Source: Candidatus Cloacimonadales bacterium
GTDB taxonomy: Bacteria; Cloacimonadota; Cloacimonadia; Cloacimonadales; JAIOQZ01
DNA length: 64,000 nt
NCBI GenBank assembly: GCA_963662655.2
Contig: CAXXTU010000002.1
Coordinates: forward strand, 672,001 to 736,000
Reading direction: 5' to 3'
The notes below the pieces were generated by a model. The model was not told the origin of the DNA. It ran no database searches and worked only from the letters and a program-made list of their open reading frames with translations. Shown here piece by piece: positions 3,387 to 33,028 of this stretch; positions within the stretch are counted from its first letter, which is position 1, and every line of letters starts with the position of its first letter. The translations under genes and the position numbers were made by a program.

Positions 3387-6377
3387 TTATTTGATGAGCA
3401 TCATTTTCCGGGTGGTGCTTTGCGAACCAGCGTCGAGGCGATACAAGTATATGCCAGAGCCTACCTTCCTGCCGTTTCGGTCTTCGCCGTCCCAAACAAT
3501 CTTGTGCACACCTGATTGGTATCCGGTAAAGTCACGAATCAGTTCGCCCTTCAGATTGAAGATTCTAACTTTCGCCGTATCGTTCTCCTTAACGGTGAAC
3601 AAGATGGTTGTCGACGGATTGAATGGGTTCGGGTAGGCTGCTTCGAGCTTGTTTACCAGCACAACCTCCGGCGTTTCCTCGTCCGATTCCGAATACTGCA
3701 CCGTAACGGAAACCGGACCATATAGCTTACTCGATCCGTCCAGATTCACGCCTTGAAGCCAGTAATGAAAGGTCGCATCGGACGTGACATCAGTATCGAG
3801 ATAGTTGTAATCCGCTCCGTCCGGCTCGTTCTGAGAGGGAATCATCTGTAGATTGACCTGAAGAGACTCATCCAGCACGTCGGTGACGGATCGCAAGACG
3901 TTGTATCCTGCCATTTCCGATTCAGATTGCGTGATCCACTCGAGCTTCACGGCTTCTTCAGAGGTTACGATCGCTGAAAACGATGATAGCTCCACAGGCA
4001 ATGTGTGATTCGCACCACCACTCATGGTGAACTCGCTGAAAGAAGTCGTGTTTGCGTAGAGGTAATCGTCCAGATCGCCGTTGATGTCGTTGTTGTCATG
4101 ATAGAACAGATTCCCGAGCAGCGTGAAATCCCCACTCAGATAGTCGCTACGATGCCACAGTTGAATCCCGGTATCCGTATCGTTGTCCATGGTGAGGAAG
4201 AGGGATGTGTCGATTCCGCCGGAAGAGATTTGATTGAGCTGATCGACGTTGAACTGCAATTGCCCGTTCAAGAAGGTGAATCCCGTGTTGTTCGTGATCA
4301 CAAAAGAAAAATCTGCCGGATTGGGCGCAGAAAGGAACGCGATTCCAGGTTCCTGTGGAGCTTCTTCAATAACGTCGATTGTGACATCGTTGGTAATAGC
4401 CCCGGCAACTCCCGTGAAATTGATATCCAGCCCGGTTGTCGGGAAGGGCACGATTCCGTCTGCGGCTGTCTGCGTACTTGTTCCTGTGGGTGGATAAACG
4501 TCCGTAATGAAATCAACGACAGGCCCGAAGCCGAAAAGACCGCTGCTGTTGACCGCGTAAGCACATGCATTGTAACGCAAGCCCGGCGCAAGACCGGTCA
4601 GGATTATAGAGAATGATCCCACATCCGTACCGGTAGCCGGCACGAACAATCCGGAAGAAGGCACATTATTGTAAGGTGCGTAGCAAATACCGCGCTGAAT
4701 GAGGCTTGCTCCGCCATTGTCGGTGACGGTTCCACCCAGAGTGGCGCGATGATGAAGGATTGCAGTTGCCGGATCCGTTGCTGAAACCGTAGGATTTGTG
4801 ATAGGCGAGGACTCGATCTGCAAATCCTCCAGGAAGATGTAGTAGTAAGTGGCATCGTCGGTTCCCGTTGTCTTGAATCCCAGATAGATCGATTGCCCGG
4901 CATAGTTGGATAGGTCGAAGCTCGACTGAGACCAGCTCGTTCCCACACCGATGGTTCCAAGTTGCGTGTTGAAATCCGTAGTGTAGTTGTTGCCGGTTGT
5001 GGAGATGTAGACGTTGAATCCCTGGTTGAAGGAGTTGAGCCTGTTCGTCCAAAGCGTGAATGTGTCCTGCGTGTTTGATGGCAGCGTGATCTGCGGAGAT
5101 ATCAGCCAGACATTGGGGTGCTTCGCGCCGAGATAATGCACTCCCGTATGAGGGTTCGAGTAATAATACAGCCAGTCATCGGTGGAGTCTCCGTTGTAAT
5201 CGAGATTCCATCCAGCAACATCGAAGCCGTCCCACGAAGTGAACAGAGGGTAGGTGTTGGTCGATGTACTTGGCTTGATGCCTATAATAATGTTGTTGCT
5301 TGAAGAATAATTATGCGTCCCGGGATTCAAGCTCCCAATGGCAAAATAGCCATTATAAGCCCCACCCCAACCCCAGTTGAAGTGGAAATAATCACTGTCG
5401 TTGTATCCGTCGCACACGAACGCGTGTCCGCCGGTTCCCGATCCGGCATAGAGCACGGGGCGACCCGCGTTGTGCTCAGCCTTGAGCATGTTCTTCCACG
5501 AGGTCAGATCGCTGTATTCATGGTAGGTCAGGCCGTTATCGTAGTTGAAGAACATGACCAGCGCTTTGAGCGCGCTTCCCATCTGTGCGCCGGATCCGGT
5601 AGGACCGAAATTCATATCGACCGATACCGCGCAGTCGTAGATCAAGCCTTGAACCGCGTTTTTCTGAGTGGTAGTCGATCCGCTGGTTACTGCGGTGGGC
5701 ATGTTGAGCCAGCTATAGGTTGTCGAACCGAAATTCGCGGATTCGGTACCGTATGCTGAAGTGTAGGAGTGCGAACCGTAACCGACCGCGGGATGTGAGT
5801 GGTAACGCATGACTTGCGCCATCGCTGTCGCGACACAACCTGCCCATACATTATTGTTACTCGCTGTGGACGTAATATCGTAGGGGCATTGCTCGTTGTA
5901 GTACTGTCCCTGGTTCCATGTGGTTGTGACGAGCGCGTTCACGCCCCTCGAGAGCGGATAATGCGAGAACTGACTGCTCTCGATATCCTGCCATAGGGGA
6001 AGAGTGCCTTCGTTGGTGAGTTTTTCGTTCATGAACTGGTCGATCTGCCGGTGATAGTCTTCAAACCATTCCTGAACTGCCGGATGCGTGATATCGCTCA
6101 CGGCGACGTTGGTCTCCGAATACCCCAGAACTGGAATCACACTGTCGTCGGCGGGAATGATAACGAATCCCCCCTCGGAAAAACTAACGATGTAAAGACT
6201 AGTGTGACCTTGATAGTCAAGCGTTGTAACGTCGGATGCGGTAGCTCTGGCGCCTTTGACGTGTGTAAGCCAGTTTGATGCGATTACCTGTGCTCGCTCC
6301 ATCGATACGGATGCAGCGAACACCTGGGTAATCAAAAGGAGAAGGAGAAAAAACCAAGCGCAGCGTTTCATAATCAT
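3387..6377 (-). CDS. Secreted C10 (streptopain-like) cysteine peptidase with Spi/I69 prodomain, adhesin-like middle region and FlgD/T9SS-like CTD
   Basis: Signal peptide; WNQG.YYN..CP, AGCVATAMAQVM, GHAFVCDGY, FHFNWGWGG; C-terminal YPNPFNPST. Confidence 0.88.
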   Translation of the reverse strand: MIMKRCAWFFLLLLLITQVFAASVSMERAQVIASNWLTHVKGARATASDVTTLDYQGHTSLYIVSFSEGGFVIIPADDSVIPVLGYSETNVAVSDITHPAVQEWFEDYHRQIDQFMNEKLTNEGTLPLWQDIESSQFSHYPLSRGVNALVTTTWNQGQYYNEQCPYDITSTASNNNVWAGCVATAMAQVMRYHSHPAVGYGSHSYTSAYGTESANFGSTTYSWLNMPTAVTSGSTTTQKNAVQGLIYDCAVSVDMNFGPTGSGAQMGSALKALVMFFNYDNGLTYHEYSDLTSWKNMLKAEHNAGRPVLYAGSGTGGHAFVCDGYNDSDYFHFNWGWGGAYNGYFAIGSLNPGTHNYSSSNNIIIGIKPSTSTNTYPLFTSWDGFDVAGWNLDYNGDSTDDWLYYYSNPHTGVHYLGAKHPNVWLISPQITLPSNTQDTFTLWTNRLNSFNQGFNVYISTTGNNYTTDFNTQLGTIGVGTSWSQSSFDLSNYAGQSIYLGFKTTGTDDATYYYIFLEDLQIESSPITNPTVSATDPATAILHHRATLGGTVTDNGGASLIQRGICYAPYNNVPSSGLFVPATGTDVGSFSIILTGLAPGLRYNACAYAVNSSGLFGFGPVVDFITDVYPPTGTSTQTAADGIVPFPTTGLDINFTGVAGAITNDVTIDVIEEAPQEPGIAFLSAPNPADFSFVITNNTGFTFLNGQLQFNVDQLNQISSGGIDTSLFLTMDNDTDTGIQLWHRSDYLSGDFTLLGNLFYHDNNDINGDLDDYLYANTTSFSEFTMSGGANHTLPVELSSFSAIVTSEEAVKLEWITQSESEMAGYNVLRSVTDVLDESLQVNLQMIPSQNEPDGADYNYLDTDVTSDATFHYWLQGVNLDGSSKLYGPVSVTVQYSESDEETPEVVLVNKLEAAYPNPFNPSTTILFTVKENDTAKVRIFNLKGELIRDFTGYQSGVHKIVWDGEDRNGRKVGSGIYLYRLDAGSQSTTRKMMLIK

Positions 6378-29386: not shown

Positions 29387-29560
29387 TTCTACTCCTTTTG
29401 ATATTATGAACAATTCCGTATTATAATGTATATAGGCGAGTTGCCTTGATACACACGGATATTGCTGTACACGTGATTTTCTTTTCGGCGCTACGTTAAC
29501 TAACGATGTACCAACGAGAAAATCATAATTACACGAAAACGTGACAAAATATTGACAGTC

Positions 29561-29579
29561 AAGGATTCGTGTCAAGTTA
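29561..29579 (+). repeat. Left att-like direct repeat AAGGATTCGTGTCAAGTTA
   Basis: Identical to 33010-33028; flanking bases differ on both sides. Confidence 0.85.
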
Positions 29580-29731
29580 TTCACGATTAATCCACGCGGT
29601 TTCCACAAATTATCCACATTCCGGGCGTCCCTCAAAGCCTTTCATGACAGGTGTTCAATATCGTTTTCCACATATCCACAGCGCTTATTATTACTATTAT
29701 CTCTAAAAATCTTAATCGTAATAGTAATAAT
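29577..29731 (+). promoter_or_regulatory. DnaA-box array and oriC-type unwinding module
   Basis: Boxes at 29577, 29588, 29599, 29610 (TTATCCACA perfect); overlapping pair TTTTCCACA/ATATCCACA 29664-29680; GCGC; then TAA/TAG trinucleotide repeats on the bottom strand 29685-29699. Confidence 0.78.
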
Positions 29732-29805
29732 CAGTGGAATATTAACCGATAATAGGTTTACACATGTCTCAATGTGTCAACATTTCGAAATGAGCGAGGT
29801 AACGC

Positions 29806-30375
29806 ATGAATCTAGTTCAACCACTACGTGAGCGCCGTCAGATCGATCTTGTAAAAACCTACCTTCGGAACCACCCACGAAATTCGAAATCTGCCAATCC
29901 ACTTCGCTACTACATGCTTTTTATGCTCGGTATCCATACAGGGTTACGAATATCCGACATCCTGCCGCTGCGCGTGCAGGATGTCATGTACCGTACCCAC
30001 GTTGTAGTCCACGAGCGAAAGACCGGGAAAACGCGTCTCTTCCGGCTTTCGAGCTCATTGCAGCTTGAGCTCGAGGACTATTGCCGCGAGATGAGCCCAG
30101 AAGATTACCTTTTCGGCAACTCCCAAGGTGGTCACCCTCTCGAGACAAATTGCCTGGCAAACTCTGCATGATGCGTGCCGCGCCGTCGGGATCACCGACG
30201 CGATCGGCACGCATACCCTGCGAAAAAACCTTCGGCTATCATCTCTACCAGCAAACCCACGACGTGGCTTTGCTGCAGATGATACCTCAACCACTCGCAT
30301 CCAGCAACAACGCTTAGGTACATAGGAATCATTCAAGATCGAATCGATTCCGCAATCCAAGGACTAGCTCTATGA
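29806..30375 (+). pseudogene. Minimal (catalytic-domain-only) tyrosine recombinase with three +1 frameshifts (real or sequencing error)
   Basis: Reconstructed: MNLVQPLR...GIHTGLRISD...ERKTGKTR...LSRQIAW...GTHTLRK/TFGYH...LQMI/LNHSHPATTLRYIG; R, K, H-x-x-R, H and Y catalytic residues all present across three frames. Confidence 0.88.
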
Positions 30376-30566
30376 ACCAAAATACGGCCCATAAACTCAT
30401 CAATCCCATTCCAACCTGTGAATCGTGCAAACGCTACACTCCAGTCAATCACTTCAGCGGGATCTGCTCCAGATATCCTTCAACGAAACGAGATCACGTC
30501 TGCATTCTGAACTACTGCGAACACTGGATCGATCGCAAAACCGAAAAAACGAGGTTCCAACGATGA
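30372..30566 (+). CDS. Small Cys-rich putative Zn-binding protein (64 aa)
   Basis: ATGA overlap with the integrase stop; CESC..Y...C...C..W pattern. Confidence 0.6.
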   Translation: MNQNTAHKLINPIPTCESCKRYTPVNHFSGICSRYPSTKRDHVCILNYCEHWIDRKTEKTRFQR

Positions 30567-30856
30567 TAGAACGCTGCTGTCGCACTTGCTCACATTGGGC
30601 ACGTCAAAAGGATCCTGATAGCAAATATTGGTGCCACATTCACAAAGCTTATACGTATCGATCGTCATATTGCCCAAAGTGGCAAGAGCGCCAGGCGCTG
30701 TCATTCGATCCGATTTGTGGTTTCTGTGAATTCTGGGACCGCTCGAGCGACCAGGTTAACCGTCACTGCAAATATCACAACGAGCATACCAACATCGGAG
30801 ATACCTGCCCGGCATGGTTTCTCATCCCAACACTCAAACAATCGGAGGAATCTTGA
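30563..30856 (+). CDS. Small Cys-rich protein with two tandem CxxCxxW...C..H...CxxW modules (97 aa)
   Basis: GAGGT RBS, ATGA overlap; CRTCSHW..WCHIH..YCPKW and CGFCEFW..HCKYH..TCPAW. Confidence 0.65.
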   Translation: MIERCCRTCSHWARQKDPDSKYWCHIHKAYTYRSSYCPKWQERQALSFDPICGFCEFWDRSSDQVNRHCKYHNEHTNIGDTCPAWFLIPTLKQSEES

Positions 30857-31044
30857 TTATTAAAATCTGGCACACTGAACCGAACCGAAATCCATATGTA
30901 CAGAATTACCCGGATTACGAAGGATTCGTCGTTATCCCGCCCGACGAACCGTTCGGCGGCACCGGCTGCCGCATCCGGATCGTCGGCTGGATCCGGGAAG
31001 GCCCCACCGGCCAACATATCCACATGACGGAGAAATCAGCATAA
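30853..31044 (+). CDS. Small hypothetical protein, paralog A (NYPDYEGFV...RI.GW)
   Basis: TTG start after GGAGG, overlapping the upstream stop; paralogous to 31134-31352. Confidence 0.65.
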   Translation: MIIKIWHTEPNRNPYVQNYPDYEGFVVIPPDEPFGGTGCRIRIVGWIREGPTGQHIHMTEKSA

Positions 31045-31133
31045 GAAACCCCCGCGGCGGCCGGGATGCTAAGCTTCTTGACAACTCTGCATCCCGTCCG
31101 CCAAATTCGAACATCATGACAACGGGGGTTAAC

Positions 31134-31352
31134 ATGATCGTGAACATCTGGAAAACAACTAAGGAATCACACTTCTCAGATAACTACCCAGACTACGAAG
31201 GCTTTGTAGAAGTGAAAGACTCTTCAGGCTCAGAGCACCGTATTCGAGTTATCGGCTGGTATCGAGAACGAAGTGACGGCAATCATATTCACATCGAGAC
31301 CAAGCCAGGCTCAGGCTTCGAAATCTTCGCGAGATCGAACGATAATCCTTGA
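31134..31352 (+). CDS. Small hypothetical protein, paralog B (NYPDYEGFV...RIRVIGW)
   Basis: MIVNIWKT...NYPDYEGFVEV...RIRVIGWYRE...HIHIE aligns with paralog A. Confidence 0.65.
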   Translation: MIVNIWKTTKESHFSDNYPDYEGFVEVKDSSGSEHRIRVIGWYRERSDGNHIHIETKPGSGFEIFARSNDNP

Positions 31353-31455
31353 ACCATGTGAAGACATGGCTTATTGTTCGTTTATGATTTCTCGCGGCGT
31401 ATGAGCCCGCCCACCCGCCCATCTCACGCCGCGAGGCAATCATAAAGGAGATTTC

Positions 31456-31590
31456 ATGACTCGAACAAAACAGCAATTCTCGACGATGAAGTACACGACG
31501 ATGAAGTACACGACGCTGAAGTACACGACGCTGAAGTACACGACGCTGAAGTACACGACGATGAAGCAAAAGGCCCACGGCTTACGCTAA
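31456..31590 (+). CDS. Repeat-containing small ORF (reading frame uncertain)
   Basis: AAGGAG RBS then ATG; reads MTRTKQQFST(M/L)KYTT x5 as given, or (D/A)EVHD repeats ending at 31661 if one A is missing at ~31470. Confidence 0.4.
   Translation: MTRTKQQFSTMKYTTMKYTTLKYTTLKYTTLKYTTMKQKAHGLR
31481..31566 (+). repeat. 15-bp tandem repeat CGACG(A/C)TGAAGTACA, about 5.7 copies
   Basis: Units start at 31481, 31496, 31511, 31526, 31541; partial unit at 31556. Confidence 0.95.
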
Positions 31591-32383
31591 AACTAGAACT
31601 AGGTGCCGCTCCTCGGCCACCCAGGGAGAAGGGAGCACGCAGCACACCCCGTAAAGGTTGAATGACGCGCCCCCCCTGAAACCCCCACGGCACACCCAGG
31701 CGCTCAGCCTACCTGAGTCTTTCAGCATACTGAGTCGGTACCCCGAACGCTCCGCCGCAATTGATTGGTCGCTACGCTCCTGAGAGATGCGGCTACGCTG
31801 AAGCGGTAGGGCTCTGTGCGCCCGGCTTCGGCTCGCCCCGTCGGCGGCCTTAGCTCGGTACGCATTACTGAACAGGACAAAGGAGCAGGGGGGCGCTTGC
31901 CTGGCATCGCTTCGGGCGGCAGCAAGAAAGCGCTCAGCGCGCTGCTCTCCCTCAGCGGCCAGATACGGGAGTTCCAAACCTGCGCTTCAATCGCCAGCGC
32001 AGGGGCTGCGTGCTCCCTTCTCCCCGGGTGGCGCTCGATCACGTCAGCAGCTCGCCATCCCTGGCTTCGCTGCCGCGAGGGTCACCTTCTGCAATCGTAC
32101 TGTCCAGCGCGCCCGACTCCCTCACCCCGCGCGTACTTCTTCCAGCGCTGGCCAGTCCCGGTCACGCCGTCGCCCTATAAGGGGCGCAGGCGTTCCCGGG
32201 CTCATCGACTGGTGAATCAAAGGCGGAGCGGATCACGCCCGACCTCTCTCCGTTCGGCGGGACGAAAGCCGCGCCTCGCTTCGTAATTTCAAAACTCCGG
32301 CCAACGTCCGCCGGCAAGCCTGTACCCGTTCCACGGAACCCGCTTATAACGCGATTTACGCCTACACAGAATCCGAATATCGC

Positions 32384-32412
32384 TTGTTTTTTTATCTATC
32401 TTTGCTTATCTT
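32384..32412 (+). promoter_or_regulatory. Putative sigma70 promoter for the ORF at 32433
   Basis: TTGTTT-17 nt-TATCTT, then AGGAGG at 32421-32426. Confidence 0.45.
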
Positions 32413-32432
32413 CTGCCAAAAGGAGGTTAACG

Positions 32433-32675
32433 TTGGACAAACGAAGAAAGCCACTTCCGCCGATCGAGGACGTACGCCTGATCCTTCAGGTTGGTACGTA
32501 CCCGGAAAGAACACGTCGCCTTGTTGGTGAATGCATCCAGCTTTACCACAGCACGGCATATCCTCACCGCGAAATTTGTCACCGCCTCAACAAAATCGGT
32601 TCAAGGACTTCTACGGGCTTGTCTTGGACACCGAACCGCCTCAAGTATTACGTCCGCGGTCTTCGAATTTCTTGA
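32433..32675 (+). CDS. Small DNA-binding protein resembling the stand-alone 'Recombinase' (PF07508-like) HTH
   Basis: Strong RBS with TTG start; HREICHRLNKIGSRTSTGLSWTPNRL fits the I...LN..G.RT..G..W pattern. Confidence 0.6.
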   Translation: MDKRRKPLPPIEDVRLILQVGTYPERTRRLVGECIQLYHSTAYPHREICHRLNKIGSRTSTGLSWTPNRLKYYVRGLRIS

Positions 32676-32733
32676 CAATCTCTTCTTCGAGGATCCGGAA
32701 TTGTACCAGGTAATCCAAAGGAGTTGTATCGTG

Positions 32734-32937
32734 ATGTCCTTAGCACCTCTCATCGAGCGCCTGGACAATGTCGGGCGTTCAACACGCGAGTACGGCGTTT
32801 TACTCGCGCACGTCGCAAACTTCGATAGTCAGGGGAGCATTCCGGATCTCATAGCCGATGAAATCGACGCAATTTCATCGAAACTGTCAGATGTGGATAA
32901 CTCAATGGCCGTTAACGTCGATTCTCCAGTAACTTGA
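32734..32937 (+). CDS. Hypothetical protein (67 aa)
   Basis: AAAGGAG RBS before GTG/ATG; helical, acidic sequence MSLAPLIERLD... Confidence 0.4.
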   Translation: MSLAPLIERLDNVGRSTREYGVLLAHVANFDSQGSIPDLIADEIDAISSKLSDVDNSMAVNVDSPVT

Positions 32938-32997
32938 GGGTATTATGAGCCGGAATGTGTATAAACGCTGTGAACTGCTGTGGATAGCTGTGCATAA
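32892..32997 (-). promoter_or_regulatory. Right-end DnaA-box array (opposite orientation)
   Basis: TGTGGATAA 32892, TGTGTATAA 32956, TGTGGATAG 32979, TGTGCATAA 32989; degenerate TGTGAACTG 32969. Confidence 0.75.
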
Positions 32998-33009
32998 ATC
33001 TTGCCAAAA

Positions 33010-33028
33010 AAGGATTCGTGTCAAGTTA
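33010..33028 (+). repeat. Right att-like direct repeat AAGGATTCGTGTCAAGTTA
   Basis: Identical to 29561-29579. Confidence 0.85.

Follow-up and report, generated by a model that had tools for sequence, protein, structure and literature searches.

The window analysed here, a stretch of 64,000 nucleotides from the genome of a Candidatus Cloacimonadales bacterium (contig CAXXTU010000002.1, positions 672,001 to 736,000), harbours a small integrative element enclosed by an exact 19-bp direct repeat (29561-29579 and 33010-33028, spacing 3449 bp). The element encodes a tyrosine recombinase and several tiny open reading frames (ORFs), has no recognisable replication initiator (Rep) and bears at its two ends the two parts of an arrangement which closely resembles the chromosomal replication origin (oriC) of its host. 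In the reading we favour, and which we regard as probable, it is a Rep-less integrative element whose excised circle would be started by the host's DnaA at an origin lying across the attachment site attP, and whose integration would, by splitting this origin, lower or stop its firing. The anatomy is real and recurs in five elements; from it we infer, at the level of sequence, excision, replication of the circle, dependence on DnaA and silencing by the split.

A first-pass annotation of the window had described the direct repeat, and both coordinates as well as the spacing proved correct. The same applies to its placement of forward DnaA boxes and an unwinding module inside the left repeat and of reverse boxes inside the right one, which was reproduced by our box scan (all box counts use the DnaA-box consensus). 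The element is flanked by rplM (TIGR01066) on one side and by a lipoprotein-like gene on the other and is located at C2:701561 of the host genome (G000; 3.81 Mb in two contigs, C1 and C2, 98.95% complete), about 105 kb from the GC-skew maximum. Both integrated junctions are borne out by two contig sets from one sample. Searching 31 genomes at the DNA level reveals that the rplM site is empty in two relatives, G001 and G002, and occupied by a related element in a third, G003; three further elements are found at other loci, two in G003 and one in G002. Altogether, five related elements (that of the window and L024 to L027), measuring 3449 to 3714 bp from att to att, are distributed over four loci and three species within a single Cloacimonadales genus, and their shared blocks, which are 67-98% identical, are arranged as a mosaic. 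Empty sites without box arrays, for which the first-pass annotation had suggested to look, do exist: eight are present at three of the four loci, each with at most one DnaA box, and no syntenic empty site was found for the L027 locus. It is practically certain that these elements form a mobile family. Across the phylum a match to the integrase with E<=1e-15 occurs in 13 of 232 genomes, an identity above 65% being reached only in G000, G002 and G003. The pattern of DnaA boxes followed by DnaA-trios (box+trio) is present in 12 of the 232 genomes, namely twice in G000, once in G001, twice in G002, four times in G003 and once in each of the other eight, so that the counts in G000 to G003 correspond to one host oriC plus one copy per element. 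No close relative outside the genus was found in GTDB, where 4 of 53 candidate stretches were confirmed, nor did any of 178 candidate stretches from JGI metagenomes or of 498 from IMG/VR prove to be one. In the same sample, a possible second family member is hinted at by short contigs which, compared with the middle of the element (window 31756-32223), show 6 and 16 differences. A host repeat resembling repetitive extragenic palindromes and containing G/C runs, of which G001 to G003 have many copies, lies inside L025 and L026 (L026 ~3570-3610).

The closely oriC-like character of the module might equally be expected if the chromosomal oriC itself had been interrupted by an insertion, an alternative which the first-pass annotation had already named, or if boxes had clustered by chance. 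Both can be regarded as refuted. At C2:2.767 Mb, the single dnaA gene of G000 (C2:2766490) coincides with the GC-skew minimum and with a cluster of five boxes and trios (C2:2767608-2767830), which places the host oriC next to dnaA and about 2 Mb from the element at C2:0.70 Mb. The element itself marks no skew switch, has no dnaA neighbour and is not present in all relatives; the empty sites carry no box arrays, and the module travels with the element to four loci. Among 20000 random 140-bp windows of the genome, five contain at least three boxes with up to one mismatch and one contains four; at the same threshold the element has three boxes inside its left end and four inside its right end. 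Elsewhere in G000, 350 kb from oriC, five DnaA boxes without trios are found within 180 bp (C2:2417561-2417740), presumably a datA/DARS-like site, and a 91-bp repeat present three times at C2:606626-606816 contains a DnaA-box-like 9-mer in each copy.

The left end opens with a distal forward array (29577..29618, plus strand) of four boxes with an 11-bp period, those at 29577, 29588 and 29599 showing two mismatches each and that at 29610 being perfect; in every one of the five elements, two to four forward boxes are found at these offsets. The subsequent basal unwinding module (29664..29709, plus strand) is composed of tandem boxes at 29664 and 29672 (one mismatch each), a 4-bp GC spacer, five DnaA-trios and an AT-rich start. 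It runs into an AT-rich tract (29710..29756, plus strand) with an inverted copy of the trio run, giving rise to a 16-nt inverted repeat (29684-29699 and 29719-29734). At the right end, a reverse array (32956..32997, minus strand) with boxes at 32956, 32979 and 32989 (one mismatch each) lies within the non-coding 60 bp before attR, where the other elements have four boxes. All reverse boxes but one are non-coding; the exception, a perfect box at 32892, about -115 from att, is located inside the 3' end of the last ORF, a conserved frame of 67 aa (32734..32937, plus strand), and its counterpart in the other four elements, at a nearby offset, has forward orientation. Throughout the family, the last 70 bp contain three to four reverse and no forward boxes, the first 140 bp four to six forward boxes and at most one reverse box. 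When the 70-bp right arms were shuffled, the observed number of reverse boxes was reached in 4, 0, 0, 0 and 0 of 5000 trials for the five elements. The box spacing agrees within 1 bp across all of them, and in an ungapped comparison of four elements, from which the trio columns with their 1-bp offset are left out, box columns are more often conserved than their neighbours, both in the right arm (145/216 versus 66/150; 0.67 versus 0.44) and in the left (181/324 versus 171/402; 0.56 versus 0.43).

Joining the two ends in silico places reverse boxes at about -179, -166, -155 and -145 and forward boxes at -108, -97, -86, -75, -21 and -13 relative to the trios. In 12 of 12 Cloacimonadota origins, which were chosen by the trio pattern and, being related, are not independent, at least two reverse boxes at -195 to -105 precede a forward box located between -105 and -70. 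The joined element matches this reverse/forward/trio order, the integrated left end holding its forward part only. Its unwinding module finds its best match elsewhere in G000 in the module of the host oriC (87% identity over 46 nt), and it displays the features of a basal unwinding system (BUS), i.e. tandem proximal boxes, a GC spacer and at least three trios, together with a distal box which belongs to an 11-bp array and precedes the first proximal box by 54-55 bp. If the reverse array is slid against the host positions, the score is periodic with 11 bp, amounting to 14-15 at shifts of 0 to -2 and to 0-5 at half turns. The natural junction thus lies on the helical face used by the host, yet it is no position-for-position copy of the host origin. 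The earlier proposal that the joined ends yield a contiguous oriC-like order is upheld by the split layout of all five elements and by the agreement of the joint with host origins in order and phase. Very probably, the module serves as a DnaA-driven origin.

We envisage that the recombinase, which is reduced to its catalytic domain, would insert the element at intergenic palindromes with TTGACA-like arms, the overlap following the target. Excision would join the right-end reverse array to the left-end forward array and trio module, and the joint would constitute a mimic of the host oriC of about 250 bp with attP in its middle. Host DnaA would open the circle and the host replisome would copy it. 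Upon integration the reverse array would be moved 3.2-3.5 kb away, whereby firing would be lowered or abolished and the chromosome be spared an ectopic origin. We hold it to be fairly likely that the split is indeed what gates the origin. The first-pass annotation had described recombination as an on/off switch. The split layout in five of five elements is in line with this, but the claim has to be weakened since in the integrated state the left end still has a distal box at 54-55 bp and one such box suffices in incC of B. subtilis, where a single in-phase distal box plus the proximal pair is enough in vivo and the box still works 462 bp away (PMC6669920, in excerpt). Conceivably, therefore, the left end by itself already makes up a full DnaA origin, the right boxes only raising its efficiency or copy number on the circle, and the integrated origin is silenced by the recombinase or a helix-turn-helix (HTH) protein bound at attL and at an internal palindrome, or by traffic from the rplM promoter. 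The left end, with its two to four distal boxes, contains what the minimal incC needs, namely one distal box at least 44 bp from box 6 in addition to boxes 6 and 7 and the trios (PMC6669920, in excerpt), and two recombinase-type sites 205-220 bp apart bracket the left module. Nevertheless, we consider this explanation unlikely. Both halves of the bipartite origins of B. subtilis and H. pylori are essential in vivo (PMC6669920, in excerpt), the reverse array is kept in all 12 host origins, and it is conserved, phased and non-coding in all five elements.

The 19-mer, which had been taken for the recombination site, turned out not to be the site proper. Stacking of the ten junctions shows that the latter consists of two hexamer arms of the TTGACA/TGTCAA type (TGAACA/TGTTCA in L025), each separated by 3 bp from a central 6-bp overlap which differs among all five elements and at whose left edge the direct repeats begin. 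In attL (29552..29579, plus strand), whose empty counterparts are found in G001 and G002, the host arm TTGACA occupies 29552-57, the overlap 29561-66 and the element arm TGTCAA 29570-75; in attR (33001..33028, plus strand) the element arm lies at 33001-06, the overlap at 33010-15 and the host arm TGTCAA at 33019-24. The overlap is the same at both ends in four of the five elements, L027 showing one mismatch. In the three G003 elements it resembles the 6-mer of a host empty site (e.g. TATTGA versus TATTGG, TATAGA and TAATGA), that of the window element being unlike the empty sites of G001 and G002. L024 and L027 have near-identical ends and unrelated overlaps which, together with the likeness to empty-site 6-mers, suggests a relaxed requirement for overlap homology. 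The overlap would accordingly be taken from the target with little need for homology and subsequently be made equal through cycles of excision and re-entry, a process from which matched overlaps at both ends and their likeness to empty-site 6-mers would be expected. A second recombinase-type palindrome (29757..29780; hexamer, 12 bp, hexamer) is situated just upstream of the integrase gene. It is present in five of five elements, 205-220 bp inside, and its arms co-vary with the att arms, which supports the assignment of the arms as recombinase binding site; probably, it functions as autoregulatory operator or resolution site. At rplM, the element arm on the minus strand coincides with the -35 hexamer of the probable rplM promoter, so that integration leaves this hexamer unchanged. 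At each of the four target loci, an opposite-strand host gene seems to start about 60-170 bp to the left of attL (window 29386; left flanks of L024 to L027), which suggests promoter -35 hexamers as the targets of the recombinase. At up to three mismatches, no further copy of the 19-mer is found on contig C2 and one copy with two mismatches on C1; the latter (C1:126265) is intergenic and a possible unused target site. A stretch of about 124 bp which in G000 separates the rplM start from attL (window 29405-29530) is missing from G001 to G003; it is AT-rich, comprises promoter-like matches and a 25-nt hairpin and has no second copy in the genome.

The boxes are arranged symmetrically around att, as they would be if DnaA acted in mobility rather than in maintenance, i.e. 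if it aided synapsis, timed excision to the cell cycle or started the synthesis which resolves a one-strand exchange (copy-out, as in Tn554 and in strand-biased circularizing integrative elements, SEs), the circle not being maintained. The unlike overlaps of close relatives, too, would agree with relaxed homology and perhaps with a replication-assisted resolution as in Tn1549 and SEs (PMC5871717, PMC10214605, both in excerpt), and no circle has been seen in the contig sets described below. A full trio module in host geometry, however, exceeds the needs of an architectural site. Moreover, SEs have unlike end 6-mers and four core genes (PMC10214605, in excerpt), whereas here the ends match in four of five elements and there is one recombinase. 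A role restricted to mobility thus appears quite unlikely to us.

The recombinase gene (29806..30375, plus strand; PF00589, phrog_216) codes for a catalytic domain only, which in the relatives comprises 188 aa and with which XerC/D-like PDB chains align from residue 29; R48, K72, H136, R139, H162 and Y171 are invariant in the four intact relatives. It shares 43-56% identity with a large integrase family on Firmicutes phages and plasmids; one member of a protein cluster is encoded on a contig of 8864 bp. The first-pass annotation had suggested searching homologous integrases for neighbouring box arrays. Such arrays accompany the integrase in five of five family elements but not the wider homologs, where, within the fetched flanks and among the matches listed (the best 80 of 562 and 79 confirmed of 568), the box+trio module is present at none of 159 loci and at none of 10 distant Cloacimonadota loci (of 13); the origin is therefore special to this clade. 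Three tandem reverse DnaA boxes, without trios, stand right behind a distant integrase homolog on a metagenome contig (L120:4926-4952).

As to the remaining genes, the first-pass annotation's view of tiny ORFs without Rep, primase, relaxase or capsid stands up to profile scans, in which six other conserved ORFs match no such family (Pfam, PHROGs, NCBIfam). Capsid, packaging, primase and Zot-type genes (PHROGs, Pfam) as well as relaxase and mating-pair genes are likewise missing from the element, and no iteron array is found near the origin. Two Cys-rich ORFs of 64 aa (30372..30566) and 97 aa (30563..30856), both on the plus strand, are kept in all five elements and match no family. The ORF at 30853..31044 (plus strand) probably encodes a protein binding single-stranded DNA (ssDNA), a relative of it matching phrog_18154 weakly (E 7e-4), and its paralog at 31134..31352 (plus strand) is weakly similar to ssDNA-binding (SSB) proteins (E 0.02). 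Searching with this family yielded three proteins, all from element-bearing genomes; atlas neighbours of the second paralog are phage hypothetical proteins, including one cluster with DUF736 in 10% of its members, which, given its low recognition value, is a lead only. An HUH-like 'HIH' motif in the two paralogs was considered as a sign of a Rep and judged unlikely to be one, as the tyrosine occurs in one member, the proteins measure 56-75 aa and their matches are to the SSB family. A stand-alone DNA-binding domain of the Recombinase type (PF07508-like, 80 aa; 32433..32675, plus strand), the HTH protein mentioned above, is found only in the five elements among eight family genomes and produces no significant hit in a PDB sequence search; it is a candidate directionality factor or repressor.

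A 15-bp tandem repeat of about six copies (31481..31566, plus strand), which is not seen in the alignment with the other four elements, precedes a GC-rich middle region (31616..32032) without conserved ORF; a 44-codon ORF present there in two elements is not conserved in the window, leaving its interpretation as type I toxin unsupported. The region is closed by a long-range helix of 28 bp, and helices of 18-28 bp with different sequences are found at the same place in all five elements. Among three aligned sequences 13 of 24 pairs have changed on both sides, and the folding z-scores of the three regions tested are low (-4.5, -4.4 and -2.1). In L024 (3745-4352), nested helices of 27, 24 and 20 bp together amount to a stem of some 70 bp enclosing 415 nt, whose sequence is unrelated to the helix of the other four elements. 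The region may be a single-strand origin, a structured RNA or an RNA primer; local 200-nt folding scores do not identify which strand would be single-stranded. One could go further and seek the true replication or transfer origin here, as single-strand origin, RNA primer or mimic of an origin of transfer (oriT) served by a helper, with the DnaA module as an accessory or DnaA-titrating decoy. The constant position of the helix, its paired changes, the two SSB-like ORFs and the one-sided skew given below agree with such a view, and islands consisting of integrase and oriT only are common elsewhere (bioRxiv 10.64898/2026.01.13.699239, in excerpt). The region, however, has no match in Rfam (E<=1) or in the plasmids of PLSDB and no second copy in G000; among the few families searched, VirB4 and coupling proteins are absent from four of four genus genomes, and Zot and the PF03432 relaxase from G000; and the phasing of the boxes across att would be left unexplained. 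We therefore judge an origin in the middle region with a subordinate DnaA module to be very unlikely, although such an origin may coexist with the DnaA-driven one as a route between cells.

Several observations weigh against a DnaA-started circle gated by integration. Neither the circle joint nor raised depth is seen in two contig sets from one sample, which at a depth of 2-5 is a weak test, and family members have been found in no more than three genomes, all of one genus. Compared with its relatives, the recombinase copy of the window contains three single-base insertions, near 30135, 30223 and 30284. All its segments are under purifying selection (dN 0.07-0.17 versus dS 0.8-2.1 against L024 and L027, L026 not being included), none of 30 host genes tested is split, and the sample contigs, by which one indel elsewhere in the element is corrected, do not cover the frameshifted stretch 30049-30285; the frameshifts reflect either an assembly error confined to this stretch or an inactivation of very recent date. 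With regard to the origin, the best phase score (24) is obtained at a shift of -12 instead of 0, attP occupies the place of the -127 reverse box of the host, and, by the rules of B. subtilis, the left half with its distal box at 54-55 bp might work on its own. The small ORFs may include a very divergent Rep. Finally, almost all of each element shows a GC skew of a single sign (-0.06 to -0.11), the integrase strand being C-rich whatever the flanks, which is unlike the two-sided pattern of bidirectional firing. This skew points to a single-stranded stage or to replication in one direction, or is partly due to codon content, and the conserved long helix together with the SSB-like genes likewise suggests a single-stranded stage which the proposed mechanism leaves unexplained.

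If the favoured reading is true, the element achieves by structure alone that it replicates in the free state and remains harmless once inserted, and it represents a natural minichromosome missed by Rep-based plasmid typing. To our knowledge, control in integrative elements with a free replicating phase is exerted on a Rep or relaxase gene, and the switches created through circularisation concern promoters and split genes. Its five natural variants amount to a test of half against whole origins for the distal, oppositely oriented DnaA array, and would provide initial access to the function of origins in a phylum which has so far received little study. If the boxes are only regulatory, the finding reduces to a variant of small integrative elements. 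Whether the elements constitute a new class, i.e. initiator-less integrative minichromosomes with an oriC across attP, in which excision is the on-switch of replication, re-entry occurs at -35 palindromes without overlap homology and passage from cell to cell proceeds via ssDNA with an own hairpin and SSB-like proteins, is for us evenly balanced. A search by title and opening of the abstract, with most subscription literature outside its scope, retrieved no publication on an integrative element without Rep whose DnaA origin spans att.

Among known systems, the BUS of B. subtilis incC (PMC6669920, PMC8287927, both in excerpt) has tandem boxes, a short GC spacer, trios, an AT-rich tract and phased distal boxes in common with the element, whose version, in contrast, is mobile, far from dnaA and cut by a recombination site which parts the arrays on integration; its nearest actual match is the oriC of its own host. 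Of 19 IMG/VR loci with the box+trio pattern (L071-L091), which are known from sequence alone on contigs classed as viral and some of which may be chromosome fragments, 13 have host-type box arrays, contiguous as assembled. The phage contig L072/L084 shows the reverse-gap-forward-trio order of the joined element in contiguous form, L073 has two trio modules facing each other, and none of the 19 loci has a relative of the element's integrase within 4 kb. In L087 (4558 bp), about eight DnaA boxes and a box+trio module (~2572-2900) lie beside ORFs whose translations read as microvirus-like capsid and replication proteins; DnaA may serve an ssDNA phage of this type in priming the second strand or in theta replication. 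The small Firmicutes phage and plasmid integrases of phrog_216 (~180 aa) have undergone the same domain loss and, among the matches listed, are without the module. With SGI1 and other integrative elements replicating upon excision the element shares the tyrosine-recombinase island, a plasmid-like free phase, which is presumed here, and an origin with DnaA boxes; SGI1, for which chromosomal firing of the origin has been proposed to be harmful, possesses RepA, iterons, an intact internal oriV and a transcription switch induced by a helper, whereas the element is devoid of a Rep and its origin straddles attP (PMC7826253, in excerpt). Tn916 and Tn1549 (PMC5871717, in excerpt) resemble it in their inverted arms, variable crossover of about 6 bp, several targets and circular intermediate, again presumed here; the element differs in lacking conjugation genes and relaxase, in its catalytic-domain-only recombinase, in its TTGACA-type arms and in an overlap which is usually the same at both ends. 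To SEs, GInts and Tn554 (PMC10214605, in excerpt) it is comparable in its small size, its tyrosine recombinase, its apparent lack of mobilization and its imperfect inverted repeats at the termini with a spacer of 6 bp. SEs, however, carry intA, tfp, intB and srap and leave a donor 6-bp footprint at one end, compared with one recombinase, matched ends and an oriC mimic here, and the term 'DnaA' does not occur in the main text of the SE paper (PMC10214605). The element thus belongs neither to the relaxase-bearing integrative and conjugative or integrative and mobilizable elements nor to SGI1-type replicons, SE/Tn554 elements or prophages. We propose to regard it, in its mode of action, as an oriC minichromosome combined with a relaxed-overlap recombinase of the Tn916/SE kind.

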